Shown: piece after piece, positions 13,918-64,000 of the stretch | Layout: each line of letters opens with the position of its first letter | Numbering within the stretch: the stretch's first letter is position 1 | NCBI GenBank assembly: GCA_965200145.1 | Contig: CBDATG010000002.1 | Span: forward strand, 891,461-955,460 | DNA: 64,000 bases | Reading direction: 5' to 3' | Source of the DNA: Dehalococcoidia bacterium | Lineage (GTDB): Bacteria; Chloroflexota; Dehalococcoidia; Lucifugimonadales; Lucifugimonadaceae | Program-made: the position numbers and the translations under genes | Notes under the pieces: model-generated | What the model saw: only the letters and a program-made list of their open reading frames with translations | Told to the model about the DNA's origin: nothing | Database searches by the model: none

Positions 13918-15788
13918 TCCTGACGCGGCGCGGGATTGATCAAGTCCATACCGATCGTCTCAGGCACCACCGCGGCAAGCTCATCAACCGTCCAACGACC
14001 GTTCTTGTAAATCGAACGGCTCGGAACCGGGTGATTCATCAAACTCACCCGATTCCCCGAACAATGGAAGACGTTGCCAGATACCCCTGCCGCCGCATCC
14101 GTGCACAGCCACACCACCATCGGCGCAACATAGTCCGGGTCGTCCGTAATCGTTCCTGCTACCGGAGGCGGAAACGGTCCGGCACGCATCGACCTGATCG
14201 CATCAGGAACACTCTCAGTCATGCGTGTATGCGCACCCGGCGAAATCGTGTTCGCTGTCGTGTCGTAACGCGCCAGCTCTTTGGCCACCACTCGCGTGAA
14301 TCCCGCTATACCGTCCTTCGCAGCTCCGTAATTCGACTGACCACCTTGACCATACAGTCCAGAAACCGACGAAAAAGTGACGATGCGACCTGACTTCTGC
14401 TCGCGGAATATCTCCGATGCCGGGCGCACCACCGAATACGTTCCCTTCAAGTGCACCGCGATCACCGCGTCCCACTCCTCCTCGGTCATGTTGAAAATCA
14501 TTCGGTCGCGCAGTATCCCAGCCGGCGTGATAACGATATCCAGCCGTCCAAACTCATCCAACGCCTGTTGCACAATGTTCGCACCGCCTTCAACCGTCGC
14601 AACAGAGTGGTAAGACGCAACTGCCCGCCCTCCGAGCTCACTTATCTCTTCTACCACCTGCACCGCAGGTGTCGAATCCTCTCCCGCACCGTCTAACGCA
14701 ACGCCAATGTCGTTCACAACGACGGACGCTCCCTCTCGCGCCAGCAGACGCGCAACGCCGCGACCGATACCTCGACCAGCTCCGGTCACCACTGCGACCT
14801 TGCCCGTCAATCTCGAACCGCTCTCCCCTCGAATAATCGCCGGGGCATCCATGCCGCTACCGGGATTGACCTCGGCTAATCTGGACGAACCAGTCGCGCT
14901 TGGCGAGCCGGCCAACAAGATCCTCGGAGCGAGAACATCCAGCTCATCGAGACCCCAGTAGCCCGGCGGATTCGAGGCATAGATCGTGTTCACCCGACGC
15001 GGCAAAGACAAATGAGTAACATTCCCGCCATAAACCAAGAAAATCTGACCGTTGATATGCCCCGCCGCGTCAGATGCCAGATAAGCCACGAACGGCGCGA
15101 CATCCTCAGGATCCCACTCCGGCTCGCCGGCTTGCGGAAGAATGCCGCTCTCAACCATCTGTTCACGCACATGACCGGGGATCGATTCCACCATCCGAGT
15201 CGAAGCTCGTGGAGCAATGCTGTTAGTCGTAACTCCGTATTTCCCCAGGTCCTTCGCAAGCACTTTCGTGAAACCGCCTATCCCTGACTTGGCAGCACCG
15301 TAATTCGACTGCCCGGGATACCCAACTAACCCAGACTCCGACGTGAATGTCACGATCCGACCGCCTCGCTGTTGACGGAATATCGGCGCGGCGTGACGAC
15401 ACACCGCGAAGGTGCCCTTAAGATGAACGTCTATGACCGAATCCCATTCCTCTTCGCTCATGTTGTAGATCATCCGGTCTCGCAAAATCCCAGCCGCCGT
15501 GACCACTATGTCGATTTGACCGAACGAATCCAAAGCCGCCTGCACAATCCGTTCTCCGCCCTCCCAGGTAGTAACAGATTCAATGGACGCAACCGCATCA
15601 CCGCCTGCATCCTTGATAACGTCCACGACCTCATCCGCATGAGAGTTGGAACCGCCGCTACCATCCAACTCCGCTCCAATGTCATTCACGACAACCTTGG
15701 CACCATGCGAAGCCAGAGACAGCGACACTGCCTTGCCGATGCCACGACCCGCACCAGTGACCACCGCAACCTTGTTCTCAAGATGCAA
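13914..15788 (-). CDS. Tandem double short-chain dehydrogenase/reductase (two MFE-2/HSD17B4-like SDR domains)
   Basis: Two complete SDR units: KVAVVTGAGRGIGKA...SNYGAAKSG and KVAVVTGAGRGIGRG...SNYGAAKDG. Each has the TGxxxGIG cofactor motif and the YxxxK catalytic motif. Confidence 0.8.
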   Translation of the reverse strand: MHLENKVAVVTGAGRGIGKAVSLSLASHGAKVVVNDIGAELDGSGGSNSHADEVVDVIKDAGGDAVASIESVTTWEGGERIVQAALDSFGQIDIVVTAAGILRDRMIYNMSEEEWDSVIDVHLKGTFAVCRHAAPIFRQQRGGRIVTFTSESGLVGYPGQSNYGAAKSGIGGFTKVLAKDLGKYGVTTNSIAPRASTRMVESIPGHVREQMVESGILPQAGEPEWDPEDVAPFVAYLASDAAGHINGQIFLVYGGNVTHLSLPRRVNTIYASNPPGYWGLDELDVLAPRILLAGSPSATGSSRLAEVNPGSGMDAPAIIRGESGSRLTGKVAVVTGAGRGIGRGVARLLAREGASVVVNDIGVALDGAGEDSTPAVQVVEEISELGGRAVASYHSVATVEGGANIVQQALDEFGRLDIVITPAGILRDRMIFNMTEEEWDAVIAVHLKGTYSVVRPASEIFREQKSGRIVTFSSVSGLYGQGGQSNYGAAKDGIAGFTRVVAKELARYDTTANTISPGAHTRMTESVPDAIRSMRAGPFPPPVAGTITDDPDYVAPMVVWLCTDAAAGVSGNVFHCSGNRVSLMNHPVPSRSIYKNGRWTVDELAAVVPETIGMDLINPAPRQD

Positions 15789-24873: not shown

Positions 24874-24995
24874 GTTGATTCCGCAAACTCTCGCGGCAAC
24901 AGCCGGCGGTGTCATAGCGCGAAACACGCGCAACTGATACGCCGATTGGTTACCCGAGAATCACGCTAGACCGTTGAATAATCGGAGAGATGCAA

Positions 24996-27047
24996 ATGCT
25001 GACCTTCAAACACAAGGCACGGGGTGCGATAATCGCCATGGCCATTGCCGTGACGGCATTCACCGTCGTCGCATGCACTGGCGGCGAGACGATTGTCACC
25101 GTCGAAGTCCCCGTTACCACCGCGCCAGAAGTCGTGGTGCAGACAGTCGTCGTTGAGAAACCCGTTGAGGTGGCCGGCGAGACCGTCGTACAAACCGTCG
25201 TCGTCGAACGAGCCGTCGAAGTGCCGGGCGAAACCGTCGTCCAGACCGTTGTCGTCGAGAGAGAGGTCGACCGCGAGGTTCAGGTACAGGTCGAAGTAAC
25301 TAGACAAGTCGAAGTAACTAGAACCGTTCTCGAAGTCGCAACCGCAACGCCAGTGCCAACCGCAACCCCGTTGCCTATCGCTCCCGTTCAACCCGCTCCA
25401 CCACCGAAGAACGCATACGGCACCGTGAGTGTCGCAGTCTTCAACATCGGACCTGGCGTCGGTCTCGGCAGCGCACAGGCGCCTGTCGAGGCAATGCAGT
25501 ACTGGGGTGTCGGAGAAGGACTGTTCGCAGTCGATGACGATGGACGAACCATCGGCAAACTCGCAACGGAATGGAGCCTTCAGCCAGACTTCTCCTATGC
25601 AGACGTTACGTTGCGGGAGGATGTGGTATTCCACCAGAACTTCGGACCATTCTCGGCAGACGACGTCGTATTCACAATGAACGACGCCAACGCCGCCGTC
25701 AACAACACCAGCATCCACGGACAAGCCGGCGACTTTGCAGCCATCTTCGCCGAGACTGAGAAGATTGACGACAACACCGTCCGATTCAACTTCCAAGAGG
25801 GCGGATTCGACCCGCGATGGAACGGAAACTTCCTCAACGAACAGGCGCAAGGTACCGCTTTCTTCTCCAGCAAAGCTCTGGCAGACAATGGCGAGGCGTT
25901 CCTGAGAGACAACATAATCTCAACAGGACCCTTTGAGGTCAGCGAGTGGGTCCAGGACGACAGAGCCGTACTCACCGCCGTTACCTACGACCACTGGTTC
26001 GCAGACCCAGAGATACAGGAACTGCGATTCATCGAAATCCCAGAACCTTCAACTCGCGTCGCAAACCTCCGCACAGGTGATGTAGACATCGCAGAAGCAG
26101 TCCCACTAAAGGACATCCGACCACTCGTCACCTCTGGATTCACCGCCGAGAGCATCGCACGATCAGGACGTGTGCACCAGATCATCTTCTCAGGTAACTA
26201 CCTAGAGGCAAATCACGCTCGTACCGGTGAGCCTATCGACCGAACAGGATCCGGTTACTGCGTACACGACCTGCCTTGGGTAACATGCAACATCGAAGGA
26301 AAGCAGCCTGGTGATGCCGAAGAAGCGCGAGATGTCCGATGGGCACTGGCAAAGGCAATCGACCGCGAACTGATCGTAGAAACGATCCTCGACGGCTTCG
26401 GCACAGACGCATCGATTGAATACGTTGACACGACCGCGTCTTACTTCGAACCGCGCTGGAGAATCCCGTACAACCCGCAAGAAGCCATGGAGCACATGTC
26501 CAGGACCGCATGGCCAACCGCTAAGTTCCCAATCGGGATTTGGACCGGCGGCGAACTCGGCGGGTCAAGCGGCACTAACGCCGAGATCAACGATGCCGTC
26601 GCGGGTATGTGGAAAGCCATCTGGCCAGACCTGGATGTTCAGGTCTTCAAGTCCGCATACTCCATCATCCGACCAAGCCTCGTCGGACGAACAAACACCA
26701 TACCGTATGGCGGTGACTGCGACGAAGGCTCCACCGCAATACCGTTCGACTGGCCTCACGGACTGACCGAGACAACCTTCACCAGAGGCGGTTTCGGTTG
26801 CGGTCTCGAGATACCCAGGATCGCAGAAACTTTCAAAGCCGTGTCCATTGAAGGCGACCCGGCCGAACGTGTGCGACTGAACTCCGAAATGATCGACTAC
26901 CTGTACGACGAGATGTTCTTCGCAGGAACTGTCCAGGTGCCGGTCTTCACGGTGTACAACCCACAGGCAATCGCAGAATGGAAGGGAACCTCCTCTGCAT
27001 TCGCAGCCTCTAACGAATACGAGAAGATAAAACTCGTATCCCGGTAG
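24996..27047 (+). CDS. ABC transporter substrate-binding lipoprotein, family 5 (Opp/Dpp/Nik type), module 1
   Basis: Lipoprotein signal MLTFKHKARGAIIAMAIAVTAFTVVAC, a V/E/T-rich repeat tether, then a family-5 SBP body. I prefer the second ATG (24996) because GGAGAG ends 6 nt upstream. The track start is 24990. Confidence 0.85.
   Translation: MLTFKHKARGAIIAMAIAVTAFTVVACTGGETIVTVEVPVTTAPEVVVQTVVVEKPVEVAGETVVQTVVVERAVEVPGETVVQTVVVEREVDREVQVQVEVTRQVEVTRTVLEVATATPVPTATPLPIAPVQPAPPPKNAYGTVSVAVFNIGPGVGLGSAQAPVEAMQYWGVGEGLFAVDDDGRTIGKLATEWSLQPDFSYADVTLREDVVFHQNFGPFSADDVVFTMNDANAAVNNTSIHGQAGDFAAIFAETEKIDDNTVRFNFQEGGFDPRWNGNFLNEQAQGTAFFSSKALADNGEAFLRDNIISTGPFEVSEWVQDDRAVLTAVTYDHWFADPEIQELRFIEIPEPSTRVANLRTGDVDIAEAVPLKDIRPLVTSGFTAESIARSGRVHQIIFSGNYLEANHARTGEPIDRTGSGYCVHDLPWVTCNIEGKQPGDAEEARDVRWALAKAIDRELIVETILDGFGTDASIEYVDTTASYFEPRWRIPYNPQEAMEHMSRTAWPTAKFPIGIWTGGELGGSSGTNAEINDAVAGMWKAIWPDLDVQVFKSAYSIIRPSLVGRTNTIPYGGDCDEGSTAIPFDWPHGLTETTFTRGGFGCGLEIPRIAETFKAVSIEGDPAERVRLNSEMIDYLYDEMFFAGTVQVPVFTVYNPQAIAEWKGTSSAFAASNEYEKIKLVSR
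25080..25345 (+). repeat. Coding tandem repeats (V/E/T-rich tether of the binding protein)
   Basis: Repeated peptide units (ETVVQTVVVE(R/K)xVEVxG x3, QVEVTR x2). These include an 18-bp exact tandem at 25287-25304 / 25305-25322. Confidence 0.85.
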
Positions 27048-39308: not shown

Positions 39309-40523
39309 ATGCGAAATCCGACTCTCACAAGTCCGCGAATCGTCCGACGATCGGCAGGAAGGTTCGCCCTGTTGCTAATCGCCGCTTTCGTCACAACCGC
39401 ATCCTTACTCGCCGCCGACACGCACGCCGATTCACACCTCGTCTATTTCCAAATTTGGCGCATCGAAGCCGCAAACCAAGTCGTTGACGCTCGACCTGGA
39501 CAGCGAATCCAACTACGCTTGAACGTCTTCGACAAAGACGGCAACTCGTTGAACGCTGAGATTGACAAGACTATCCAAGAGGAAGCACTGTTCCGATGGA
39601 TCGGAGAAGGCGAATTCTCAGAGATGCGAGGTATACACCAAGCACGAAAGAGCGGACGACCCGATGACAGAGTCGTCGACTACATCGTGTCGCGAAACCC
39701 AGGCATCTACTCAGTAGTCGCTGGACTAGTCATGCCTGACCTATGCGCACCAGAACGCACAGCCGGCTGCACAGGAAGGTCAACGGCGTCGTTCACCATC
39801 AGAGCCGCGCGCTCATCAGTCGCGACCGCTACATCTACTGAACCCATGGACCCGCCGAACCCGATCCCGTCCCAGATCACTGACCCCGATGGAACCCTGT
39901 ATTCGGTAGCGATTCCAACAAAGGGTGGCGAAGCCCGCTCTGCCAACGCATCCATAGAGGTCCCGCCTGCCGCCATCAATAACAACACATTCGTCGGCAT
40001 CAGGATCAGTCAGCAGAATCCAGCCATCAACGCCGCGGATGGACCACGACGCTTCACCGTCGGCGGAGACTGGTATCAGGTCGACATCGTCAACAGCAAG
40101 GGACAACACTCTCTCGACTACAGATTAGGAGCACCGGCCACTGTATGCCTGCCAATGCCCGTTAGATTCCGCCCATACCTCTCAGACATAATGCTCGTCG
40201 AAGGCATCGGGTACAGCCGCATACTCACATCGAATCCAAGATTCGACCAAGACCATGGGTGGCGCACTTGCGGGACGACAAGCAGCCTGCCTGGTACATT
40301 CGCGGTAGCAGTACGCGGCGACAGAAGCGAACTGCTACCGCCATCGCCTACACCGATGCCAACAGAAGCGCCAGTGATTGTCATCTCAGTAGGTGCCCCC
40401 GCTCCGACCGCACACTCCGCTACCCTGTGGGCAATTCTCGGTGCAGCGATAATGACAATCGCCGCCGCGATGCTGACGATTCCCAAACTGAGACGCGCAT
40501 CGAGCAGGGACGGAAAACGCTAA
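39309..40523 (+). CDS. Hypothetical secreted protein with Pro/Thr linker and a C-terminal TM anchor plus basic tail
   Basis: N-terminal signal RFALLLIAAFVTTASLLAA. C-terminus PPSPTPMPTEAPV...LWAILGAAIMTIAAAMLTIPKLRRASSRDGKR. No family recognised. Confidence 0.5.
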   Translation: MRNPTLTSPRIVRRSAGRFALLLIAAFVTTASLLAADTHADSHLVYFQIWRIEAANQVVDARPGQRIQLRLNVFDKDGNSLNAEIDKTIQEEALFRWIGEGEFSEMRGIHQARKSGRPDDRVVDYIVSRNPGIYSVVAGLVMPDLCAPERTAGCTGRSTASFTIRAARSSVATATSTEPMDPPNPIPSQITDPDGTLYSVAIPTKGGEARSANASIEVPPAAINNNTFVGIRISQQNPAINAADGPRRFTVGGDWYQVDIVNSKGQHSLDYRLGAPATVCLPMPVRFRPYLSDIMLVEGIGYSRILTSNPRFDQDHGWRTCGTTSSLPGTFAVAVRGDRSELLPPSPTPMPTEAPVIVISVGAPAPTAHSATLWAILGAAIMTIAAAMLTIPKLRRASSRDGKR

Positions 40524-40548: not shown

Positions 40549-42084
40549 TCACTCCCGCGAAACGTAATCCATCTCCGGGCGAAGATCCCAGCGTAGCGTG
40601 TCTGGCGGGTCCGTGTTGCGCGCCCACTGCACCATCAAATCCTGTTCTCGCTTCAATACGCGCATCCGGCCCGCTATACGATCCGGATCCCAATGCTCCA
40701 ATACACGCCGCATCAGTGCCTCGCGAACTGACCTGCATCGCGGGTCGTTGGCGCGGTCATCTAGCTCATCTGGATCATCCGCCAAGTTGAAAAGCTGCGG
40801 ATCGTCGTAACCGTGGTAGTAGACCAGCTTCCAATTTCCAACGCGTACCATGCGATTCTGCACCCCGCCTGGCTTCGCATGCACATCAGCACCACCCAAG
40901 TTCGGTGAATCCGCACTTCCAGACGACGAATCGTTCATGCAGTACTCGCTGAAAACCGCATCCTTCCACGGCGCATTCTCGGGATCGCCAATAAGCGGCA
41001 AGACACTCATGCCATGTCCCTGCGGCAACGATGGAGCACCTGCCGCATCAAGCATCGTCGCGGCCAAGTCGAACTGCTCTATCGGAGTATCAATCACCGT
41101 CCCACCAGGAATCCTACCTGGCCAACTCACGATAGCAGGCACGCGAACCGAGTTCTCATAAAACGACTGTTTCCACCAAAGACCATGCTCCCCAACCTGC
41201 TCCCCATGGTCAGACGTATAGATGATCATCGCGTTATCCATGAAGCCATTCGATCCCAACGAATCCAGTACATCACCTATCAACTGGTCCGTCCTATCGA
41301 CCAGAGCCCAGTACGCCGTACGCGCTCGAATCGCGTCTGCATCGGGTACCTCCTCAATCCCAGTCCGCTCCCGCCACCAGCGTATGTAAGGATGACAAGC
41401 ATCCATATCCTCAACCGGTATCGGTGGCAAGCCGACCTTGCCATCGTACCGATCGTAATCATCCGGTCGCGCCACAAACGGTTGGTGCGGCAACATAAGA
41501 CCAATCGACAAGCACAGCGGACTGTCATCGATCCCTGAACGCCGCGCTATCCCCTTGTTGTTGATGAAATCTACCGCCGACTGCACAACATACTCATCAT
41601 GCACCTCGTACGCAGATTGCCCACGGCCTGAGAGTTCCAAACTAACTCGCGCCGGACCAGCCGTGCCGTGTAGCATCCCATGATCAACTCCGTGCGGACT
41701 GCCAGGATGATTCGGACCGTGATCACCGACGTATCGACGAGAGAAACCGTGCAACTGGTCAGCCCCGTTGAAATGCATCCTCCCCACCTGAACCGGATCA
41801 TAACCCACCGCGCCCAATGCATGGGCATACGTCGGAACCGCCGAACTCAGTATCTGGTCGTTGGTCCAGACCTCAGTCTCGTACGGATAACGTCCCGTAA
41901 CTAGCGCAGTCCGAGATGGCACGCAGATCGGGGAAGCGCAGTACGCCGCCGTGAAACGAGCACCTGATGCCGCTAAACGGTCCAAGTTCGGCGTGCTTAC
42001 TACGTCATCGCCAGCGCAACCCATAACAACCGGACTGTGCTGGTCAGATTGGATATAAACGATGTTGGGAGCGTCTTCCTTCAT
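40549..42084 (-). CDS. Sulfatase (formylglycine-dependent arylsulfatase/choline-sulfatase-like)
   Basis: N-terminus NIVYIQSDQH, FGly motif CASPICVPSRTALVTGRYP (CxPxR), and YTSDHGE. Confidence 0.88.
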   Translation of the reverse strand: MKEDAPNIVYIQSDQHSPVVMGCAGDDVVSTPNLDRLAASGARFTAAYCASPICVPSRTALVTGRYPYETEVWTNDQILSSAVPTYAHALGAVGYDPVQVGRMHFNGADQLHGFSRRYVGDHGPNHPGSPHGVDHGMLHGTAGPARVSLELSGRGQSAYEVHDEYVVQSAVDFINNKGIARRSGIDDSPLCLSIGLMLPHQPFVARPDDYDRYDGKVGLPPIPVEDMDACHPYIRWWRERTGIEEVPDADAIRARTAYWALVDRTDQLIGDVLDSLGSNGFMDNAMIIYTSDHGEQVGEHGLWWKQSFYENSVRVPAIVSWPGRIPGGTVIDTPIEQFDLAATMLDAAGAPSLPQGHGMSVLPLIGDPENAPWKDAVFSEYCMNDSSSGSADSPNLGGADVHAKPGGVQNRMVRVGNWKLVYYHGYDDPQLFNLADDPDELDDRANDPRCRSVREALMRRVLEHWDPDRIAGRMRVLKREQDLMVQWARNTDPPDTLRWDLRPEMDYVSRE

Positions 42085-46479: not shown

Positions 46480-48429
46480 TTACTGCGCAGCTTTCAAGTT
46501 GCCCAAGATGTACGGGAAACCAGTGTGCGGGTGGATCCCGTTCATGTAAGGCTCATAACCTGGAGCATCAGCCGGCCAGTTCGTCCAGTACGTCTCGTTG
46601 CGAGCCACACGGTTGAAGAACTCAAAAAGCGGAACGTCCGGCATGTCCGTCAGCCAGATACGAAGTGCCTCCTCCGTTAGGTCAAGCACCTTCTGCGTGT
46701 CTGGCTCACGAGCCATTGACTCAACGATCGAGTCGAACTCGGCGTTTGAGTAAGACCACCTGTTACCGCCGTTATCAGTGGTGTAAGCCAACAACGTACG
46801 GTAAACGTCACCCGATTGCGACCCGTTGTGTCCAACCAACGAGCACTCGAAGTCACCGCCCTTCGTGTTGCGAGCCCAAACATCCGGCGGTTGCGACCAA
46901 CTCGAATCGATGCCATGACGCTGCAATGTCGACGCTAGTGCAGGACCAAGGTCCGTGAAGTGACCTGAACCAATGATGTTGCACTTGATCGTGTCGCCGT
47001 TCGCATCGGCCCAGAGGTCGTCAGCGTTCTTCGTGTAGCCAGCCGCCATGAGCAACGCATCCGCACCGTCCCTGTCGTACTCGCCAAGTCCGAACTCCTG
47101 CGCCAGAGACTCCATCGCCGCGTTCACATGGGCTAGTCCCGCATACTGCGGCCACGGCCACTTGTTGATACGACCCTTATTCAGGTACGCAGACGCGTTA
47201 ACGCGGTCCCTGTCAATGTACTTGCTGATGGCTGTTCGGACATCAGCGTTGTCCAAGTGTGGCTGCAAACCGTTGATGTGCAACGAAATCGGCCACCAAG
47301 AAACCATGCCCCACTCGCCGTCCGCGTCGCGTCCGGTGTACGTCGTCGCATTCGGGTTCTCGCGCAGAATCGTCTCGACGGTGTCAACTCGCAAGTCGTG
47401 AGTCTCGTCAATCTGGTTGTTGATTAATGCCTGTGCAAGGCCAGTGTCGTCAACGATGTTGTAAAGCACGTAACGCTCAACTTCTGGCAATGGCGCGAAT
47501 CCCGTGACACAGCCCCAATACTGCTCGCAGGTGCGAACACGGTCCAGTACCCGTCTGAACTGGTCGGAGTAGGAAAGCCGCCAGGCGCCAGTCGTTACCG
47601 GACCAGCACCGTCGTTGTATGCGTCGTAGGTCGTCCAGTCCTGTCCGCTCCAAATATGCTCCGGAACTATGTAAGTGCCAGAGTCACCCTTGTAGATGAC
47701 GACCTCGGCATGGAACCTTGGCGAAGGGAAGTTGAAGTTCAGCGTCACCGTAAGCGGATCAACAACCTCAGCGTCTTTCACGAACGTCCTGAACACGCCA
47801 CCACCGCGCACTTCACCATCAGACTGCGCCAACGCGTTGAACGTGTAGGCAACGTCCTCGGCATCGAACGCCTGGCCATCACTCCAGAAAACACCATCGC
47901 GCAGCTTGTAGGTCAACGTAGTCGCATCATCGTTGTACTCGAAACTCGTCGCAAGCCACGGGTAGGAATTCCCGTTGAGGCTGTCAGAGTAGTAGAGAGG
48001 CTCGTGGAAGAACGCAACTCCTTTCTGGTGCGTCCCACCGATGGCGTAAGGACTCCACATGCGGAAGTTAACGCCTTGGCCGAAGCGCGTGCCGGTTACC
48101 ATCGTCCGACTCCGAGGGATCGACGAGACTACCTCCACCTCACGCTCCACCTCTACCGTCTGAAGCACCACGGACTCACGAGTCACTTCAACAGGAACCT
48201 CTACCTGTACCTCACGCTCTACCTCGACCTGGACAGTTTGCACAACGACCGCCTCGCGAGTTACCTCAACAGGAACCTCAACCGTGACAACCCGCTCGAC
48301 TACTCGCTCCTCACCCGGAACGACGACCGTAACCGTCTCCGTAGAGCCGCATGCCACCAACCCGGCCGCGAGTAACGCGCCCGTGATGAGACCGAGCAAC
48401 CCGGCCAAGCCCAACTTGTTTCGTTTCAT
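46480..48429 (-). CDS. ABC transporter substrate-binding lipoprotein, family 5, module 3
   Basis: Lipoprotein signal MKRNKLGLAGLLGLITGALLAAGLVAC, a V/E-rich tether (VVERVVTVEVPVEVTREAVVVQTVQVEVEREVQVEVPVEVTRESVVLQTVEVEREVEV), then a family-5 SBP body. Confidence 0.85.
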   Translation of the reverse strand: MKRNKLGLAGLLGLITGALLAAGLVACGSTETVTVVVPGEERVVERVVTVEVPVEVTREAVVVQTVQVEVEREVQVEVPVEVTRESVVLQTVEVEREVEVVSSIPRSRTMVTGTRFGQGVNFRMWSPYAIGGTHQKGVAFFHEPLYYSDSLNGNSYPWLATSFEYNDDATTLTYKLRDGVFWSDGQAFDAEDVAYTFNALAQSDGEVRGGGVFRTFVKDAEVVDPLTVTLNFNFPSPRFHAEVVIYKGDSGTYIVPEHIWSGQDWTTYDAYNDGAGPVTTGAWRLSYSDQFRRVLDRVRTCEQYWGCVTGFAPLPEVERYVLYNIVDDTGLAQALINNQIDETHDLRVDTVETILRENPNATTYTGRDADGEWGMVSWWPISLHINGLQPHLDNADVRTAISKYIDRDRVNASAYLNKGRINKWPWPQYAGLAHVNAAMESLAQEFGLGEYDRDGADALLMAAGYTKNADDLWADANGDTIKCNIIGSGHFTDLGPALASTLQRHGIDSSWSQPPDVWARNTKGGDFECSLVGHNGSQSGDVYRTLLAYTTDNGGNRWSYSNAEFDSIVESMAREPDTQKVLDLTEEALRIWLTDMPDVPLFEFFNRVARNETYWTNWPADAPGYEPYMNGIHPHTGFPYILGNLKAAQ

Positions 48430-55531: not shown

Positions 55532-58500
55532 TTAATGATAAACCGCGTCAGGCTTCCTGCGCGTTAGCGCATCCGCAATCATGTAGGGATAGTCGCGCCT
55601 GAAACCGGCCGACTCCAATATCGCAGCACCGAATGACTCCAAAACAGGAACACCGTTCCACTCTCGAACCCTCACCCGAGCCGACGCACCCGACATCATG
55701 CAATCATCCAACAGCACCCTCGCCGCGCCTACCATCTCCGACTCGTCAGCGTCGTCGGCAACGTAAATCTGTGACCCGCTCGAGTACCCAACAAGCAACA
55801 GGCGGTCAGACATCACAATAATCGCTCCCGCCAGCCTATTGTCACGCAATAGGCCCGAACCAGGAGAATCATCGCGAGCCAACATCGCGCGGTCCAATAC
55901 CCAGGCCGGATCCGACGACCTAACTACCGCCATCCCAGCAACGCATTCGCGGGTACGCAACTCCTCCACGAACTCATTAGACGCGAACTGCAAGCCACCG
56001 AGCCCGTCCACGAAGTATCCGCGCCTTACCTCGCCACGCAACTCCATCAAACTCAACATCGCGTAAATCGATTGCCAATCCCAACCTAACTCATCCTTCC
56101 GTACCGCCTGGCGCGTCGCGACGCCATACCGTTCCAGTAGCACGCGGGCACGAGCCGTCGCCAACTCATCATCGCTACGCTCAGGTCCTAGAAAGGCAAA
56201 CCTGTTGGTTGCAGACCACCTCGCGTCAGCCGGTGCAAACATGCGCCGTTCCCGGTAACGACGCGCAAACTCGCGGCGCAGACCGACACGATTCCGGCGA
56301 CTACCACCCACCATCGGCCGACGCGTAGGGTAAGCCGAGCGCACCGCGCCGTTCGTTGACCTTGAAGCGATCGCCTGCGCTACGTCCCATCTATCGCAAG
56401 TCACCAGCCCGCGACGAGCCAGCTCTGCCAAACCGTCAGTCAACGCGGTGCTATTAATCTCCCGCAAAGAGATCTCAATATCTGCAGTGCTAACAATACC
56501 TTCGCGAACGATGAAATCGTACAGCACACTCAATTGCTCTCCGAGAGAGGAGCCATCGAACTCCAGAATCGCATCCAGAGTGTCTGTCGGCAACACAGTG
56601 CGACCGTTCTTGGCACACACCAAGGCGACACTGTCTGACGAACCGCCACCGGTAAACACCCAGTAGGCATCACCGCTTCGCAATACGTCATCCAACATTC
56701 GCACACTGAATCCTGAAACACGCGCAGGGAATATCTCAGATGCCCAGACCTGGGACGAGTGCCCAATGCCCTGCAACCTCTGAACGACATCAAGCACCCC
56801 AGCAGCACCTTCAAGCCTCCCGCCCTCGATTGCGTGATGACGCGCCAACAGCATCCGCTGATATCGCATGGGTGGAACGGGCTCAACCTCTGACCGCAAG
56901 ATCGCCAGCGTCCGTGCTCGCACCTCTTCCAAACTTACGATGCCGATGACCTCTTGCTCGTCAGAACGAGTGAAGTATCCGCGCGCCACGAAACCATCGT
57001 CAACAAGCAACTCAATCGCCGCATCGATTCGCACCTCTTCGAACGGATACCTCGCCAGGAGCTCCGACATCCCGAGCGGTCCGCACCGCTGGATGTAACG
57101 CGCCAACACGTCCGCAAGCGCAACTGCATCACCACCTCCGCGTAGCACCGCGGCGTAAGTCCCCTGATCATCTCCCGAAATCCAACGCCAATCCGAACCG
57201 CCGCCAGGAGTCGGAAACTCAACGCGAACCGCCCGTCCTTGATCCGCTAACTCACTAAGCCACTCCCACCACTGCTCACCGCAACATTCACGTACCTCCG
57301 ACTCAAGCAGATCGCCGCAATCAATCAGCAACTGTGCCAACTCAGTGGCAGACCTGACCTCTCGCAATCCATCAACAACACTGCCATCCTGTCGCGGCAA
57401 TGCCTCTGGCTTCAGCAGTCCCACCGATTGCGGACGCTTGAACAACTGCACCAGCGCATCGCGGTCGGCTGACAGCGACTGAATGGCGCGCTCGGCGTTG
57501 GGCGTGTCCCACTGATACATCCAATGGTCAATGAAGCGAAACTCAAGCGAACGAGCCACCGGCGAAGGCGATCGACTGGACGAATGGACAACCCTGATCT
57601 CCCCGCGGTGAATGCGTGCCAACACTTCCATCAAGCCCGGAATGTCCATCACATCTTCCATCACATCTCGGTAAGTCTCCAGCAGCACAGGAAAGTCAGG
57701 CAAGCCTCGTGCAATAGATAACAGGTCCTTAGACCTAAGCCGTTGCAACCAGAACGGTGTGCGCCGACCGAAACCTACAGACGGCATCAAAAGCGACCGA
57801 GACGCGTTCTGGCGGAACGTCGCACCAAACATCGGCGAATCCAAGATGCCATCCAATATGTGACGCTTCACCACATCCGGTGCCATGCCAGTCACCAGGT
57901 CAACCGGCGGTTCACCACCGCCGTCTGCCAACCTCAACATGAAACCATCATCATTAACCTGCGACTCCGGCTCAACGTACCCCCGAGAGCTCAGCTCCTT
58001 GACAGCTGCCACTGACCAGGGACCGTTGACGCGTCCCCCGAACGGAGAGTGCACAACGATGCGCCAGTCACCAACATCATCTCGATACGACTCCACCACG
58101 ATCTCCCTGTCGGACGACATCGCACCGCACGCCCGCAGCTGCGACCTGACGTATGCGATGATCTGACGCGCGGCGACATCGTCAATGGGATACTCCCGCG
58201 TCAGCCAAGCCGTCAACTCCGGTGGATCATAGTCCTCATCAACATGTGGCCGCAAACGCTCTGCCACCTGCGCCCGGAACTGGCCGTACTTAACACCCAG
58301 ATCCGACGGACGCCACGGAAACTCGCCGCGCCAAAACGGCATCCTCGGCACAGAGCCAGGCGCAGGCTCCGCCACCACGCGATCATCATCTATGTCGATC
58401 GCGCGCCAGACCTGACTACCCAACGCGAACACATCACCAACCGCCGACTCATACACGAACTCCTCATCAAGCTCACCAACCGTCGTCTTCCTGTCAGGCA

Positions 58501-60121
58501 ACACGACCCTGAACGCACCACGATCAACGATGGCTCCAGCGTTGGACACGGCCGACATTCGCGTACCGGGTAGCGCACACAACACATCCTGCGTCCTATC
58601 CCAATGGACACGGGCCTTGAACACACCGAATAGCCGTTTCGGAAAGTGACCAGACACAAGCCGAACCACCGACTCGAACGTGGAATACGCCAGGCCAGCG
58701 TATGGATACGCACCGCGGACTGTGTCATACAAATCACGCAACCGCCAATCATCAAGCGCAACAGCCGAAACTATGTGTTGCGCAAGCACATCCAGAGCAT
58801 TCAACGGTATGTGCATCGCCTCTATTTCACACTCCAGCATCCCCTTCGCGACGACGGTCGCCTCCAACAGATCCTCTGGATGCGTCGCATACACCTTCGC
58901 ATAACTCGTCGCACCAACTTGGTGGCCAGCACGCCCGACGCGCTGCAAACCTTGCGCGACCGATTTCGGCGACTGCAGCTGGACGACCATATCGATGCTG
59001 CCAATATCAATGCCGAGCTCCAGCGAGCTCGTGCCGACCAACGCGGGTAACCTACCGTGTTTCAGGTCATCCTCTATCTGCCGACGCATCGCATCCGATA
59101 TGCTCCCGTGATGCGCTAAGAACGGACCTCCAGATGTCCCAGAGCCACGCTCACCGCCTCCTACTGCCGACCCTTCATCCATCCCCGAATCTCGCGCTAC
59201 TAGCACATGATTCAACCTATCTGCCGTGTTCTCTGCCTGGCGACGAGAGTTCGTGAACACCAGAGTCGTGTCGTGCGACTCGACATCGTCTAGCACCCGC
59301 GGGATAATCCCCTGCCAAACCGAATCCGCATGACCTGCCGCATCAGACTCAGGCATCCCGACCACCTTGACATCAAGGTCTGAACGACCCGCGCAATCCA
59401 CAACTTGCACCTCCCGCCGAATCGGCTCCTTACCGCCAACAACTCGCATCCCGCCGAGTAGCTTGGCCACCTCCGACAACGGACGCTGAGTCGCCGACAA
59501 CCCTATCCGCTGGAAATTCGGTGCCAAACGTTCCAATCGTTCCAACGAAACAGCTAGATGCACTCCACGTTTATTCGAGCACATCGTATGAATCTCATCA
59601 ACGATCACCGTCTCCACACTTCGCAATATGTCTCGAGCCCTGATCGAGGTGAGAATCAGATACAGAGACTCTGGAGTGGTTATCAGAATCTCAGGCGGAT
59701 TACGCACCATCCGCGCACGCTCGGCCTGCGGCGTATCTCCAGTACGAACACCAACACTCACCTCCGACCGATCCGTGCCTGGACTGCCTAAGGCATCCGC
59801 GATACCTCGAATGGGCTCGCGCAGATTGCGCTCAATGTCGTAGTTCAACGCCCGCAACGGCGAAATGTACAGAACCTTCACGCCTCGTTCCCGTGTCGGA
59901 CTAGACTGGCGCGCGTACCCCGCATCAATCGCAGAGAGAAACGCCGCTAGTGTCTTACCCGATCCTGTCGGAGAGTGAATCAGAACATTGTGCCCGCGCT
60001 TAATCAGCGGCCAAGCGCGACGCTGAGCCTCCGTCGGCTCACCGTAACGACCCGTAAACCACGCGGCAACTTCCGGAAGAAACCCAGAGAAAGCCCCCGA
60101 TTTAACCTCACCCGCCATCAC
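55532..60121 (-). CDS. lhr: Large helicase-related protein Lhr (SF2 DEAH-type ATP-dependent helicase with long C-terminal extension)
   Basis: 1529 aa. Q-motif/Walker A PTEAQRRAWPLI...HSPTGSGKT, DEIH box (IVDEIHTM), and SAT-like and HHGS motifs. The length and N-terminal pattern match Lhr. Confidence 0.88.
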   Translation of the reverse strand: MMAGEVKSGAFSGFLPEVAAWFTGRYGEPTEAQRRAWPLIKRGHNVLIHSPTGSGKTLAAFLSAIDAGYARQSSPTRERGVKVLYISPLRALNYDIERNLREPIRGIADALGSPGTDRSEVSVGVRTGDTPQAERARMVRNPPEILITTPESLYLILTSIRARDILRSVETVIVDEIHTMCSNKRGVHLAVSLERLERLAPNFQRIGLSATQRPLSEVAKLLGGMRVVGGKEPIRREVQVVDCAGRSDLDVKVVGMPESDAAGHADSVWQGIIPRVLDDVESHDTTLVFTNSRRQAENTADRLNHVLVARDSGMDEGSAVGGGERGSGTSGGPFLAHHGSISDAMRRQIEDDLKHGRLPALVGTSSLELGIDIGSIDMVVQLQSPKSVAQGLQRVGRAGHQVGATSYAKVYATHPEDLLEATVVAKGMLECEIEAMHIPLNALDVLAQHIVSAVALDDWRLRDLYDTVRGAYPYAGLAYSTFESVVRLVSGHFPKRLFGVFKARVHWDRTQDVLCALPGTRMSAVSNAGAIVDRGAFRVVLPDRKTTVGELDEEFVYESAVGDVFALGSQVWRAIDIDDDRVVAEPAPGSVPRMPFWRGEFPWRPSDLGVKYGQFRAQVAERLRPHVDEDYDPPELTAWLTREYPIDDVAARQIIAYVRSQLRACGAMSSDREIVVESYRDDVGDWRIVVHSPFGGRVNGPWSVAAVKELSSRGYVEPESQVNDDGFMLRLADGGGEPPVDLVTGMAPDVVKRHILDGILDSPMFGATFRQNASRSLLMPSVGFGRRTPFWLQRLRSKDLLSIARGLPDFPVLLETYRDVMEDVMDIPGLMEVLARIHRGEIRVVHSSSRSPSPVARSLEFRFIDHWMYQWDTPNAERAIQSLSADRDALVQLFKRPQSVGLLKPEALPRQDGSVVDGLREVRSATELAQLLIDCGDLLESEVRECCGEQWWEWLSELADQGRAVRVEFPTPGGGSDWRWISGDDQGTYAAVLRGGGDAVALADVLARYIQRCGPLGMSELLARYPFEEVRIDAAIELLVDDGFVARGYFTRSDEQEVIGIVSLEEVRARTLAILRSEVEPVPPMRYQRMLLARHHAIEGGRLEGAAGVLDVVQRLQGIGHSSQVWASEIFPARVSGFSVRMLDDVLRSGDAYWVFTGGGSSDSVALVCAKNGRTVLPTDTLDAILEFDGSSLGEQLSVLYDFIVREGIVSTADIEISLREINSTALTDGLAELARRGLVTCDRWDVAQAIASRSTNGAVRSAYPTRRPMVGGSRRNRVGLRREFARRYRERRMFAPADARWSATNRFAFLGPERSDDELATARARVLLERYGVATRQAVRKDELGWDWQSIYAMLSLMELRGEVRRGYFVDGLGGLQFASNEFVEELRTRECVAGMAVVRSSDPAWVLDRAMLARDDSPGSGLLRDNRLAGAIIVMSDRLLLVGYSSGSQIYVADDADESEMVGAARVLLDDCMMSGASARVRVREWNGVPVLESFGAAILESAGFRRDYPYMIADALTRRKPDAVYH

Positions 60122-61408
60122 TCACCACAACACCATCGAGTCATGGAACAAACCGCGCAAGTCATCGGCCGTTACCGGACGCGGCGAAAGCTTTGTCACT
60201 CGGTGCTGCGGCAACGTCCCTACAACCAACATCTCAACATCTGACGGCCGGTAACCTATCGCAGACAATCCGTTCGGCATGTCAAGGTCGCGCAACAACG
60301 ACACGATCTGACCCGCCAGCACGTCACCCGCATCCACAGCATCAGCACCATCAATGTCAGCTCCCATCAACTCGGCAAGTCGCAGATGACGCGACGGGTC
60401 CGCAACCGCAGTCCAACGAAACACCGCCGGCGCATTCACTATCACCGACAAACCGTGAGGCGCAATCGGCTTGCGACTCGGATAACCGGCCGGACGATAC
60501 GACCTTACGTTTGACGACACCGGATAAGACATACCATGCGGAAGATGCACTCCCGCCGTGCCGAAAGAGAAACCCGCCACCGTCGCAGCTAGACTCATGT
60601 TCGTACGCGCTTCAATGTCCGACGGGTCATCAACAGCACGACGAATGTTCTCCGAAACAATCTCAACGGCCTTAGCAGCCCAAACATCGCTCAGCGGATT
60701 CGACCCCTGATACGTCGGCCGATGCGCCGGGTCTATCGCCGCCTCCCGTCGATTGAATGGCAACGCAGTGTAAGACTCCAACCCATGACACAATACGTCG
60801 AAACCCGAAAACGCCGCTACATTGGGCGGCATAGACTCCGTGTTCAGCGGGTCAACCAGACCCATTGTCGGCTTGAGCGCACGGTTCGCAATGCCCGTCT
60901 TCGCACCAACCTCAGGCATATCGAATATCGCAACCCCCGATGTCTCGCTACCAGTACCCGCCGTCGTAGGCACCGCAAACAGCGGACGCAACGGCCCAGG
61001 TACCGGCGTGCCACGACCTATCGGAGCATTCACATACTCCAAGAAGTCTGCCGGATGCGATGTGTACAAATTCGCCACCTTGGCAGTGTCCATAACCGAA
61101 CCACCGCCAACCGCAACGAAACCATCGAAATCCCCGCCGTCCGCAAACGCTATCGCATCACGAAACGACTCATCCGTCGGCTCAACAACCACGCGATCAT
61201 AAACAGTCACACGCACATTGCTATCGTCCAGCGATTCCAACGCCGTATCTACTGCTCGCGAACCAATCAAGCCCGCATCAGTAAGCAACATCACATGACG
61301 CAAACCAGCACGCGAAACCTCAAACCCAAGCTCCGATGTAACACCAAGCCCAAACTTGATGCTCGCAGAATCCGTTGCGAACGCACTTTCCAATAGCGGC
61401 GTACTCAT
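60122..61408 (-). CDS. Iron-containing alcohol dehydrogenase (hydroxyacid-oxoacid transhydrogenase-like)
   Basis: VAVGGGSVMDTAKVANLY nucleotide-binding motif and metal His residues (LCHGLES, GVHLPHGMSY). Its stop TGA directly abuts the lhr start. Confidence 0.82.
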   Translation of the reverse strand: MSTPLLESAFATDSASIKFGLGVTSELGFEVSRAGLRHVMLLTDAGLIGSRAVDTALESLDDSNVRVTVYDRVVVEPTDESFRDAIAFADGGDFDGFVAVGGGSVMDTAKVANLYTSHPADFLEYVNAPIGRGTPVPGPLRPLFAVPTTAGTGSETSGVAIFDMPEVGAKTGIANRALKPTMGLVDPLNTESMPPNVAAFSGFDVLCHGLESYTALPFNRREAAIDPAHRPTYQGSNPLSDVWAAKAVEIVSENIRRAVDDPSDIEARTNMSLAATVAGFSFGTAGVHLPHGMSYPVSSNVRSYRPAGYPSRKPIAPHGLSVIVNAPAVFRWTAVADPSRHLRLAELMGADIDGADAVDAGDVLAGQIVSLLRDLDMPNGLSAIGYRPSDVEMLVVGTLPQHRVTKLSPRPVTADDLRGLFHDSMVLW

Positions 61409-61541: not shown

Positions 61542-62873
61542 ATGTCAAACGCTCTCGAAAGAATCATCCCAACCACGCAGTTCGTAGACCTATACGAACT
61601 AACCATGGCCGATGTCTACACACACAACGACATGGCAGACAATACAGCGACGTTCAGCCTCTACTTCAGAGGCTACCAGCACAACAGGGGCTACTACCTC
61701 GTCGCAGGTATCGACGCCGCACTCGACTACCTCAAAAACCTGTCCGTCAGCACGTCCGACCTCGAAACCATCCGCGAGCTAGGCATCCTCTCCAACCGCG
61801 CGCTTGAGTATCTGAAAGACTGGTCATTTACAGGAACTGCTCACGCAGTAAGAGAAGGCGAAATCATCTTCGACTCCGAACCGGTGCTCGAAGTAACCGC
61901 ACCGGTAATCCAAGCACAATTCGCCGAAGCAGCATTGCTAAACACCATCACGACCTGCACTCTCTTCGCCACCAAGGCAACCCGCATCGCACAAGCCGCG
62001 CAAGGCAGACCGGTCATCGACATGGGCGCACGTAGGACCCACGGAACCGCCGCCGCCCTGACGGCCGCGCGATCTGCCTACATCGCCGGATTCCAAGCCA
62101 CCAGCCTGCTTGAAGCCGCCGCACTTGGCATCCCTGTCGCTGGCACAATGGCACACTCTTTTATCCAGTCAATGCCAGACGAACTCTCCGCATTTCGGAG
62201 CTACGTCGAACGATACCCGAACGGCGCAACGCTACTGGTCGACACGTACGATACATACCAGGGAGTCAACAACGCCATCAAGACAGCACACGAACTGACG
62301 GAAAAGGGCGGACACATTCGCGCCATCAGACTGGACAGCGGAGACTTGGGCGCCCTAGCAACCATGGCGCGAGGAATGTTGGACAAGTCCGACCTGCCCA
62401 ACATGCAGATTATCGTAAGCGGCGGACTCGACGAATACGCCATCGACGCTCTTGTGACGCAAGGCGCACCAATCGACGCGTTCGGAGTCGGCACAAAGTT
62501 CGGAACATCCGCCGACGCTCCGTACATCGAATCGGTCTACAAGCTAGTCGAGTTCGACGGCCGACCTGTATTCAAACAGAGCGAAGGAAAACGAACTCTC
62601 CCCTTCGCCAAGCAGGTCTACCGCACACTCGACGGCCACGGAATGATGCATCATGACACCATCACCCGGCGCGATGAGCAACCAATCAACGCGTCAACGC
62701 CGCTGCTCAGCGAAGTCATGCGAAACGGTCAACGGACCCGCGAACCAGAATCGCTAGACACCACACGCGACCGGATCGCGTCAGCAATCATTTCGCTACC
62801 GTACCAATACCGTAAGTTACGATTCCCAGATACTTATCCTGTACACCTATCAGAATGCTTGAACAAGCACTGA
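61542..62873 (+). CDS. pncB: Nicotinate phosphoribosyltransferase
   Basis: N-terminus TTQFVDLYELTMADVY, GTMAHSFIQ, and the RLDSGD motif typical of NAPRTase. Confidence 0.85.
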   Translation: MSNALERIIPTTQFVDLYELTMADVYTHNDMADNTATFSLYFRGYQHNRGYYLVAGIDAALDYLKNLSVSTSDLETIRELGILSNRALEYLKDWSFTGTAHAVREGEIIFDSEPVLEVTAPVIQAQFAEAALLNTITTCTLFATKATRIAQAAQGRPVIDMGARRTHGTAAALTAARSAYIAGFQATSLLEAAALGIPVAGTMAHSFIQSMPDELSAFRSYVERYPNGATLLVDTYDTYQGVNNAIKTAHELTEKGGHIRAIRLDSGDLGALATMARGMLDKSDLPNMQIIVSGGLDEYAIDALVTQGAPIDAFGVGTKFGTSADAPYIESVYKLVEFDGRPVFKQSEGKRTLPFAKQVYRTLDGHGMMHHDTITRRDEQPINASTPLLSEVMRNGQRTREPESLDTTRDRIASAIISLPYQYRKLRFPDTYPVHLSECLNKH

Positions 62874-62906
62874 CCGACACGCGCGACACGAGGACCACAA
62901 CCCAAA

Positions 62907-63389
62907 ATGCAATCCAAACTAGCCCAAGGCGACAGACTGCCGAACACCCAGCTCAACCTAACAGACGGCTCAATCATGGACCTCCCAGTCGATATGCCTA
63001 CGAGATACCTAGTCCTGCTGTACTTCCGCGGCGCGTGGTGAAGCTACTGCCGAAGGCAGCTGGCAGGCTACCAAGACCAAATCAACGAACTCCAAGCTCT
63101 CGGTGTAACCGTCATCGCAGCCACTTCCGACAACAAAGACGACACATCACAAATGGCGGCCGATCTCGGGCTGAGCTTCCCAGTCGCCCACAGCGTTACA
63201 GAATCTGACACCGCGCCAAGCGGCACGTGGTGGTCAAACCACGACAGCCACGGACGACACATCCAGCCATGCGAATTGATCATCGGCAGAGGCGGTACCG
63301 TCCTCGGTTCAATGTACGCATCCGGACCCATCGGACGCATGTCCGTTGACGAAGTGCTGACGTTCATCCGCAACAGAGAACGCCGTTAA
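62907..63389 (+). CDS. AhpC/TSA (PRX_like2-type) thioredoxin-fold redoxin with an in-frame TGA at codon 45: candidate selenoprotein (U-x-x-C)
   Basis: A single frame is open from ATG 62907 to TAA 63389 except for TGA 63039-63041. The peptide ...YLVLLYFRGAW[U]SYCRRQL...LGVTVIAATSDN...GLSFPVAHS...ELIIGRGGTVLG... matches the FYRGxWCPxC redoxin layout, with the TGA on the first Cys. The ORF track only shows the 3' fragment 63153..63389. Confidence 0.6.
63043..63064 (+). promoter_or_regulatory. Candidate bacterial SECIS-like hairpin immediately 3' of the in-frame UGA
   Basis: GCUA-CUGCC / GAA / GGCAG-(C bulge)-UGGC. This gives 9 bp including one G.U, an apical loop containing G, and a start 2 nt after the UGA. 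Folded by hand only. Confidence 0.35.
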
Positions 63390-63440: not shown

Positions 63441-63515
63441 TGGTGGAGCTGACGGGATTCGAACCCGTGACTTCCTGCTTGCAAAGCAGGCGCTCTCCCA
63501 CTGAGCTACAGCCCC
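63441..63515 (-). tRNA. tRNA-Ala (anticodon TGC), CCA encoded
   Basis: The reverse complement reads GGGGCTG-TA-GCTC-AGTGGGA-GAGC-G-CCTGC-TTTGCAA-GCAGG-AAGTC-ACGGG-TTCGAAT-CCCGT-CAGCTCC-A-CCA. The G3:U70 alanine identity pair is present. Confidence 0.93.
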
Positions 63516-63625: not shown

Positions 63626-64000
63626 GTGAAAACCAGCCCACTCGCCCACATCATCCGCGTCGCGGTGCTCCCAGTGTGCCTGGCCGCAGTAATCGCCTGC
63701 GGAGGAGACGGTACAAGCGGAAACCAAGAACAAGGCTTCCAGCAGATCACTGTCCACGACACCGTATTCACTCTCGAACACCTAGACTCCATCGGCTACA
63801 AAGTCTCACGCGAATACAGCACCGAAGGACTGGAAGGCGCAACTGCCGCCCTGTACGGCTTCTGGAGAATACCCGACGGAGACCCCGTCGACTTCGAAGT
63901 CCGCATCTACCAATCCCACGCCGAAGCTGTCAGCCTAGGGACCGCACTCGCAGACGAAGGCTCAGGAACAGATGCAGTGCTCGATGCCGACGACGCACAG
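63626..64000 (+). CDS. Hypothetical lipoprotein, 5' part (runs off the right edge)
   Basis: The frame is open from GTG 63626 to the window end and is not in the track because it has no stop. VKTSPLAHIIRVAVLPVCLAAVIACGGDG is a lipoprotein signal with a lipobox. Codon usage resembles its neighbours, and I prefer it over the antisense track ORFs 63524..63781 and 63607..63792. Confidence 0.5.
   Translation, partial: MKTSPLAHIIRVAVLPVCLAAVIACGGDGTSGNQEQGFQQITVHDTVFTLEHLDSIGYKVSREYSTEGLEGATAALYGFWRIPDGDPVDFEVRIYQSHAEAVSLGTALADEGSGTDAVLDADDAQ

Follow-up and report, generated by a model that had tools for sequence, protein, structure and literature searches.

A predicted selenoprotein gene with an in-frame UGA in the active-site motif of a peroxiredoxin-fold protein from a Dehalococcoidia bacterium

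The DNA stretch studied here (64,000 nucleotides of contig CBDATG010000002.1 from a Dehalococcoidia bacterium, hereafter the window) carries, close to its end, a gene whose reading frame is interrupted by a single TGA. A first-pass annotation made from the letters alone had proposed that this gene encodes a selenoprotein, with UGA standing for the first redox-active cysteine. Our analysis supports that proposal, and we consider it very probable, at about 85%, that the window gene encodes a selenocysteine (Sec)-containing thiol oxidoreductase of the peroxiredoxin (Prx) fold and that the UGA at 63039-63041 is decoded as Sec. The proposal is backed by the retention of TGA in most homologous gene copies, by conservation on both flanks of the TGA, by public databases dominated by fragments of the protein and by the use of TGA as a stop elsewhere in the window. 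The features of the gene are the following.

62907-63389, forward strand: predicted selenoprotein gene, 160 codons plus TAA (from the open reading frame, the Pfam match, homologue N-termini and the coding score)
62890-62894, forward strand: possible ribosome-binding site (GAGGA), 12 nt before the ATG, suggested by the sequence
63039-63041, forward strand: in-frame TGA, codon 45, proposed Sec codon (from the homologous gene copies and active-site alignments)
63048-63050, forward strand: TGC, Cys48, second residue of UxxC and proposed resolving Cys (invariant in the family alignment)
63312-63341, forward strand: codons of MYASGPIGRM, the C-terminal signature of the subfamily (invariant or nearly so in two alignments)

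Translation from the ATG at 62907 to the TAA at 63387-63389 met the TGA of codon 45 as the sole in-frame stop (...RYLVLLYFRGAW-TGA-SYCRRQLAGYQ...MYASGPIGRM...), so that both the single frame described in the first-pass annotation and the translation quoted there were reproduced. The start codon aligned with the N-termini of homologues, which share the pattern MxxKLxQGD, and the coding score in the frame of the gene was positive on both sides of the TGA (+0.33 upstream and +0.17 downstream), the other two frames being negative. The gene is also split by open reading frame (ORF) callers, as had been anticipated: the mechanical ORF list cuts it into pieces of 44 aa (62907-63041) and 78 aa (63153-63389). 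A genome-wide reassignment of UGA was considered as well and rejected, since 16 of the 37 long ORFs found in the window end with TGA. Where the window is not occupied by longer ORFs, the focal gene was the only TGA read-through candidate.

A protein homologue search covering 5.8 billion proteins returned 117 homologues, only 4 of them full-length, with the active site WCPYC in three and WSPYC in one. About 110 of the 117 were C-terminal fragments of ~100-120 aa which started just past the CxxC column and lacked the active site, and the internal starts picked by the gene callers varied from one homologue to another. DNA was fetched for two of these fragment homologues, and in both the frame was found to run upstream via ...FYRGxW-TGA-PYC... 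to a MxxKLxQGD start. A genome scan with one genome per species gave 14 loci, all of them in Dehalococcoidia metagenome-assembled genomes (MAGs) and each with TGA at the active-site column, while a metagenome scan retrieved 250 relatives by means of two conserved peptide patterns, one of them MYASGPIGRM, and the best 80 of the 250 were taken. Among the resulting 101 gene copies (all fetched genome and metagenome loci plus the window), the active-site column was TGA in 96, TGC/TGT in 4 and TCA (Ser) in 1. The 96 TGA copies, which belong to a large family linked mainly to Dehalococcoidia, span 73 distinct 3' contexts, and the nearest relatives of the window gene, at 56-59% identity, likewise have TGA. 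WCPYC is carried by P0001, P0002, P0004, L018, L021, L022 and L030. In the family alignment, residues R33, Y34, R41, G42, W44, Y47 and C48 and the MYASGPIGRM block were invariant.

These data bear on two rival explanations. The first is that the gene is a pseudogene, or that its TGA stands, through a mistake in sequencing or assembly, for TGC or TGT, from which it differs by one base; some metagenomic copies do contain an extra TAG or TAA (L085/L088, L053, L068). However, TGA occupies the same column in 96 copies of independent assemblies, including the closest relatives, and the window gene has no further stops or frameshifts, shows a positive coding signal on both sides of the TGA and keeps the invariant family residues intact. 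The first-pass annotation had argued against decay from the family-like sequence that follows the TGA, and conservation was indeed found on both sides of it. Because TGA is retained so widely with both flanks conserved, we regard decay of the gene, or a sequencing error confined to this locus, as practically excluded. The second explanation takes UGA at face value, as the terminator of a separate 44-residue peptide followed by a C-terminal protein made from an internal start. This two-product layout is the one given by the mechanical ORF list and by most public gene calls, but it would split the gene inside the active-site motif and in the middle of a single Prx/thioredoxin-fold domain. Moreover, the first ATG after the TGA (63153) lies 37 codons downstream and the starts chosen by gene callers disagree among homologues, as noted above, which makes termination at the UGA highly improbable.

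Some of the fetched copies deserve separate mention. In the MAG CBDDDP01 (contigs 4 and 2), an 8-20 kb segment with the gene is present in three copies, L004, L005 and L006, which are 99.6% identical; one of them lies at a contig end, and the three represent either a repeat of large size or strain haplotypes left uncollapsed. Two tandem paralogues ~530 nt apart, both with an in-frame TGA, occur on many marine metagenome contigs (L043, L044, L046, L050, L053, L059, with copies e.g. at 3127 and 3660, and L068). On L052 (1843, 2380) the two copies differ, one having TGA and the other TCA (Ser, WSPYC, as in P0003); the hairpin codons of the Ser copy are altered, with CUA UCC in place of UUA GCC, and it resembles a recent conversion from Sec to Ser. 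Additional in-frame stops (TAG or TAA) at otherwise conserved positions were seen in L085 and L088 (codon +73, counted from the TGA), in the L053 copy at 703 (+63) and in the L068 copy at 3660 (+74), for example RGG-stop-IQP, where Tyr is expected at the stop position. L085 and L088 also show an aberrant hairpin region, and these extra-stop copies of L085, L088, L053 and L068 may be pseudogenes or assembly errors.

With Cys substituted for codon 45, the 160-residue product matched the Pfam family AhpC-TSA (PF00578) at 2.1e-14 and 54 bits, exceeding the gathering threshold of 26 bits, and Redoxin at 2e-11. No NCBIfam model names the family, the best match being ResA (NF002854) with 31.2 bits against a cut-off of 170. 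The best single-sequence matches in the PDB were the Bacillus subtilis ResA structures 1st9, 2h1b and 3c71, and the family profile aligned over its full length with peroxiredoxins (6q5v, 1e-9; 2cx3, 4.5e-9; HMMER). The active-site motif reads W-U-S-Y-C, in which U45-S-Y-C48 places the predicted Sec first in UxxC. In the few homologues without TGA this column holds Cys (WCPYC), and its counterpart in ResA is the N-terminal Cys of CxxC, so the alignment check bore out the earlier claim that the TGA falls on the first, catalytic Cys of the redox motif. In the alignment with peroxiredoxins, the Sec column fell on the Thr/Ser of T/SxxC and Cys48 on the peroxidatic Cys (TPVC in 6q5v, SPVC in 2cx3). 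Since Sec45 and Arg41 stand at the Thr/Ser and Pro positions of the typical Prx motif PxxxT/SxxC, the active site is thioredoxin-like (UxxC) and not a Prx triad. The second Cys of CxxC on the Prx peroxidatic Cys, together with the absence of the rest of the triad, are PRX_like2-type features, and we take the layout of the protein to be that of the CDD entry PRX_like2 (cd02970). The Pfam score and the Prx profile alignments thus agree with the first-pass assignment to the AhpC/TSA, PRX_like2-type redoxins.

The structure was approached through an AlphaFold (AF2) model of the Cys homologue P0002, which is 56% identical to the window protein. This model (pLDDT 89, pTM 0.85) has a Prx fold with Cys45 directly before helix 46-57, and its best Foldseek matches were Prx6-type and BCP peroxiredoxins, with TM values of 0.71-0.78. 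Sequence and model together predict that the fold is that of a peroxiredoxin and that the UxxC active site, which lacks the Prx Thr and Pro, is thioredoxin-like. The N-terminus of the window protein (MQSKLAQGDRLP...) has no evident signal peptide or membrane anchor, and the product is predicted to be a cytoplasmic redox protein of 160 residues.

Bacterial Sec insertion depends on an mRNA element, the bacterial selenocysteine insertion sequence (bSECIS). In its published model (PMC13188914) the stem has at least 4 bp, the apical loop comprises 3-9 nt and lies 16-37 nt from the UGA, one of the first two loop nucleotides is a G, mostly with G or U next to it, and the energy is -7.5 kcal/mol or below. 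Most family members form a hairpin, here called hairpin B, with the core NNN-CGG-C[AGUUR]G-CCN-NNN and a loop that starts 16 nt after the UGA; the loop has 5 nt, AGUUR, with G-U at positions 2-3, and the energies range from -7.5 to -19 kcal/mol. Across 57 distinct sequences, 44 cells of hairpin B had changed on both sides, as compared with 24.5 ± 3.1 in shuffles, none of the 500 shuffles reaching 44 and slid controls giving 7-16. Two of its pairs each show five different standard pair types. Of the 73 distinct family sequences, 30 match the full published bSECIS model, hairpin B being the matching hairpin in 28, while a further ~25 distinct sequences narrowly miss the energy threshold (-5.8 to -7.3 kcal/mol); with the closing pair of hairpin B forced, 39 of the 73 are at -7.5 kcal/mol or below. 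The four Cys forms and the one Ser form have neither hairpin B nor the hairpin A described below. In the Cys form L021, for instance, the same peptide PYCRRQLASY is written with the codons CGC CGC CAA CUG GCG AGU instead of CGG CGG CAG UUA GCC AGC. In addition, Sec forms were more structured than their own codon-resampled versions (mean z = -1.0). The covariation of hairpin B, the lack of hairpins in the Cys and Ser forms and the excess structure of the Sec forms indicated that the RNA following the UGA is constrained in the family, and at the level of the family they constitute good evidence for a SECIS-type element. One Sec form, L028 539, has neither hairpin A nor B; it carries a perfect 7-bp hairpin, CCUGGUA-GGC-UACCAGG, with its loop 24 nt after the UGA and an energy of -9.5 kcal/mol, which is a third SECIS solution within the family.

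Hairpin B is not formed in the subclade to which the window gene belongs. The window and its relatives L004, L007, L008 and L019 (56-59% identity) share the sequence UGA AGC UAC UGC CGN AGG CAG CUR. Two mutually exclusive hairpins can be drawn 3' of the UGA in the window.

63043-63064, forward strand: hairpin A, 9 bp, with a bulged C at 63060, a GAA triloop at 63052-63054 and a loop that starts 10 nt after the UGA (minimum free energy fold)
63055-63072, forward strand: hairpin D, GG/CC and AGCU/GGCU pairs, with the loop GGCA at 63062-63065 starting 20 nt after the UGA (alternative fold excluding hairpin A)

Hairpin A is the 9-bp bulged hairpin that the first-pass annotation had placed where a bSECIS would sit, a statement that stood only in part. 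The hairpin exists, is the minimum free energy (MFE) fold at -11.9 kcal/mol, as the suggested folding check showed, and is both the strongest hairpin A of the whole set and the consensus fold of the subclade (window, L004, L007, L008 and L019). Its position, however, is not that of a bSECIS, the loop starting at 10 nt and not within 16-37 nt. Synonymous sites were compared in four sequences (window, L004, L008 and L019) over the eight codons after the UGA: of the codons invariant at the amino-acid level, 5 of 7 were identical in these eight codons, compared with 16 of 66 elsewhere (Fisher p = 0.018). Variation at synonymous sites in hairpin A is limited to two positions, the central nucleotide of the loop and a U-G/U-A wobble. 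Judging from ribosome footprints, we consider that much of hairpin A would be unwound once the UGA is in the A site.

Hairpin D uses the 3' strand released from hairpin A and is the MFE fold if nt 1-13 are kept unpaired. It is weak in the window (-3.2 kcal/mol), but in the five subclade sequences each of the 30 pair cells is formed; two changes are wobbles and none is compensatory, and the pairing is kept despite amino-acid changes in the stretch (AG, GS, VS, GS). The loops of all subclade members (GGCA, AGGC, AGUU and AGGU) fit the pattern G-[G/U]. Family-wide, no covariation was found for hairpin D. The SelB-binding element of the window copy might then be hairpin D and not A, formed once the ribosome melts the 5' strand of A, an idea to which we give somewhat less than an even chance. 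In its favour, hairpin D has the published loop pattern and spacing (PMC13188914), the complete set of pair cells in the subclade and the lowest energy when nt 1-13 are masked, and the synonymous sites of the Tyr and Gln codons that supply its C33 and C34 are identical in the window, L004, L008 and L019. Its energy, by contrast, falls well short of the -7.5 kcal/mol threshold, compensatory changes are lacking, and hairpin A is far more stable and equally well conserved.

We also considered that hairpin A compensates for hairpin B throughout the family, but this was unsupported because the two are not anticorrelated (Spearman -0.01). A tentative and on balance unlikely suggestion is that the SECIS has been remodelled within one family, the subclade having lost the 3' strand of hairpin B and the GGCAG strand now pairing upstream in a stable hairpin, with the loop 10 nt from the UGA. 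If hairpin A, or a ribosome-driven switch from A to D, does recruit SelB, this would define a class of bSECIS that does not follow the 16-37 nt rule and offer a natural case for how much geometry SelB needs.

It should be considered that several results weigh against Sec decoding in the window. Hairpin A showed neither covariation across the family nor compensatory changes in the subclade; in dinucleotide shuffles of a 62-nt stretch its stability gave no clear excess over chance (z = -0.59), and codon-resampled sequences equalled it in 5.5% of cases over 27 nt and in 10-17% over 36 nt. No hairpin of the window copy fits the bSECIS model, since the -11.9 kcal/mol one lies at 10 nt and the best at 16-37 nt reaches -3.2; on this point the folding check did not bear out the first-pass expectation. 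Nevertheless, 12.6% of catalogued bacterial selenoprotein genes are also without a canonical SECIS (PMC13326102), and the missing element therefore does not disqualify the window gene. Regarding the Sec machinery, no tRNA-Sec was found in the 64 kb of the window (ARAGORN and Rfam) or in 36 related loci (ARAGORN), the four tRNAs of the window being Phe, Leu, Gly and Ala. An NCBIfam scan of the window ORFs of fitting size detected no SelA, SelB or SelD, those ORFs being peptide-binding proteins, a double short-chain dehydrogenase/reductase (SDR), a sulfatase and a reductase, and SelA/SelD motif searches were negative across all fetched DNA. As the 64 kb covered belong to a genome of a few Mb, this negative result is uninformative.

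The same results could be read as a sign of UGA read-through with a residue other than Sec, either Cys brought by a SelB-dependent tRNA or Trp or Cys inserted by near-cognate suppression. SelB-dependent tRNAs that recode Sec codons as Cys have been reported from some bacteria, and the four Cys homologues show that Cys is functionally acceptable at the column. Against this, TGA has been kept in nearly all copies although one mutation gives TGC or TGT, which argues that the encoded residue is not simply Cys; the hairpin with the SelB-type G-U loop covaries in the family; and the lineage is documented as selenoprotein-rich (PMC13326102). We consequently hold read-through with another amino acid to be improbable. 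As for the lineage, the top ten bacteria of BSepDB, a database that takes only species with a Sec pathway, include two Dehalococcoidia MAGs, which have 49 and 46 selenoprotein genes (PMC13326102), and an enrichment of SelA and SelB has been reported for bins of sponge symbionts from various phyla (PMC5649159). TGA read-through scans for other selenoprotein genes in the window and the Dehalococcoidia flanks gave only the focal gene and false positives from adjacent in-frame genes.

If UGA is decoded as Sec along the known bacterial pathway, SelB-GTP-Sec-tRNA(Sec) would be recruited by an mRNA stem-loop directly 3' of the UGA, which in the window subclade would be hairpin A (63043-63064) or hairpin D (63055-63072), the latter having the canonical spacing and being able to form after the ribosome unwinds the 5' strand of A. 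In the protein, the Sec45 selenolate would attack an oxidised substrate (a disulfide, a sulfenic acid or a peroxide), a selenenylsulfide would form between Sec45 and the resolving Cys48, and a thioredoxin-type reductant would then reduce it.

The neighbourhood of the gene and the remaining features recorded in the window are listed below.

13914-15788, reverse strand: 624-aa protein with two complete tandem SDR (FabG-like) domains, residues 2-284 and 327-611
24990-27047, forward strand: peptide/nickel-family ABC substrate-binding protein, one of three paralogues of 635-685 aa
33930-35837, reverse strand: second of these paralogues
39309-40523, forward strand: 404-aa ORF, no NCBIfam match at 1e-5
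40549-42084: choline-sulfatase-like gene
46480-48429, reverse strand: third of the substrate-binding paralogues
55532-60121, reverse strand: 1529-aa ORF, putative Lhr-type helicase (our own reading, with no library scan)
60122-61408, reverse strand: iron-containing alcohol dehydrogenase (Fe-ADH)
61542-62873: NAPRTase
63441-63515, reverse strand: tRNA-Ala(UGC), 52 nt downstream of the gene
63627-64000, forward strand: ORF running off the window end, with a lipoprotein-like signal (VLPVCLAAVIACGG)

Each of the three substrate-binding genes adjoins permease-sized and ATPase-sized ORFs. The putative Lhr ORF starts at a GTG that follows the TGA of the upstream Fe-ADH gene immediately and in the same frame, and it appeared as a false read-through candidate. 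The neighbours of the selenoprotein gene (NAPRTase, Fe-ADH, Lhr and others) had no tblastn matches in any fetched locus, and there is thus no conserved operon to rely on. The closest relatives carry the same tRNA-Ala ~3.6 kb downstream (L005-L007, about 14110-14187, reverse strand).

Selenoproteins of the UxxC Prx-like type were already recognised in the earliest selenoproteome surveys of prokaryotes, and Dehalococcoidia rich in selenoproteins are on record, so that the present gene adds one thiol-oxidoreductase selenoprotein to a lineage already rich in them and the surprise is small. For annotation the consequences are broader: the family is mis-called almost everywhere, and because about 110 of the 117 database entries lack the active site and NCBIfam has no name for the family, redox gene inventories of Dehalococcoidia are incomplete.

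When compared with the bSECIS consensus of the E. coli fdhF type, hairpin B of most family members is near-canonical, whereas the window copy has no hairpin B, carries a GAA triloop at 10 nt and has a canonical-geometry hairpin that is too weak. With peroxiredoxins (Prx/BCP/AhpC) the window protein shares the fold, the whole-domain profile alignment and the placement of Cys48 at the peroxidatic position; it departs from them in having Sec for the Thr/Ser three residues before that Cys and Arg41 at the Pro of PxxxTxxC. It also differs from the TxxU selenoprotein Prx, in which it is the peroxidatic Cys that becomes Sec (PMC13188914). The W-C-x-x-C of ResA/TlpA-type oxidoreductases matches W-U-S-Y-C residue for residue, but the similarity to ResA is weak (E ~1e-4), the anchor or signal sequence is missing from the window protein and its C-terminal half is Prx-like.

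The closest known counterparts are the Prx-like thiol:disulfide oxidoreductases (PF00578, UxxC/UxxU), a selenoprotein family 'predicted with high confidence' (PMC13188914) that was named 'Prx-like 1' in the GOS survey (PMC2398784). The window gene resembles the Prx-like UxxC selenoproteins in its Pfam domain, its Sec-first UxxC and the type of evidence, namely Cys homologues and a 3' stem-loop, a likeness drawn at this level and not from a direct alignment with the reference WP_010940744.1. While the GOS Prx-like 1 family counted 225 Sec against 2,740 Cys homologues (PMC2398784), the MYASGPIGRM subfamily had 96 Sec to 4 Cys in the sample used here, and while the members in the 2006 survey came mostly from Deltaproteobacteria and Clostridia (PMC1794560), all 14 genome-scan loci found here are in Dehalococcoidia MAGs. 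Two aspects go slightly beyond a routine addition to the known family: the subfamily is nearly all Sec, and within it one subclade appears to swap the near-canonical SECIS hairpin for another, which would make it a convenient natural test of the spacing rules.

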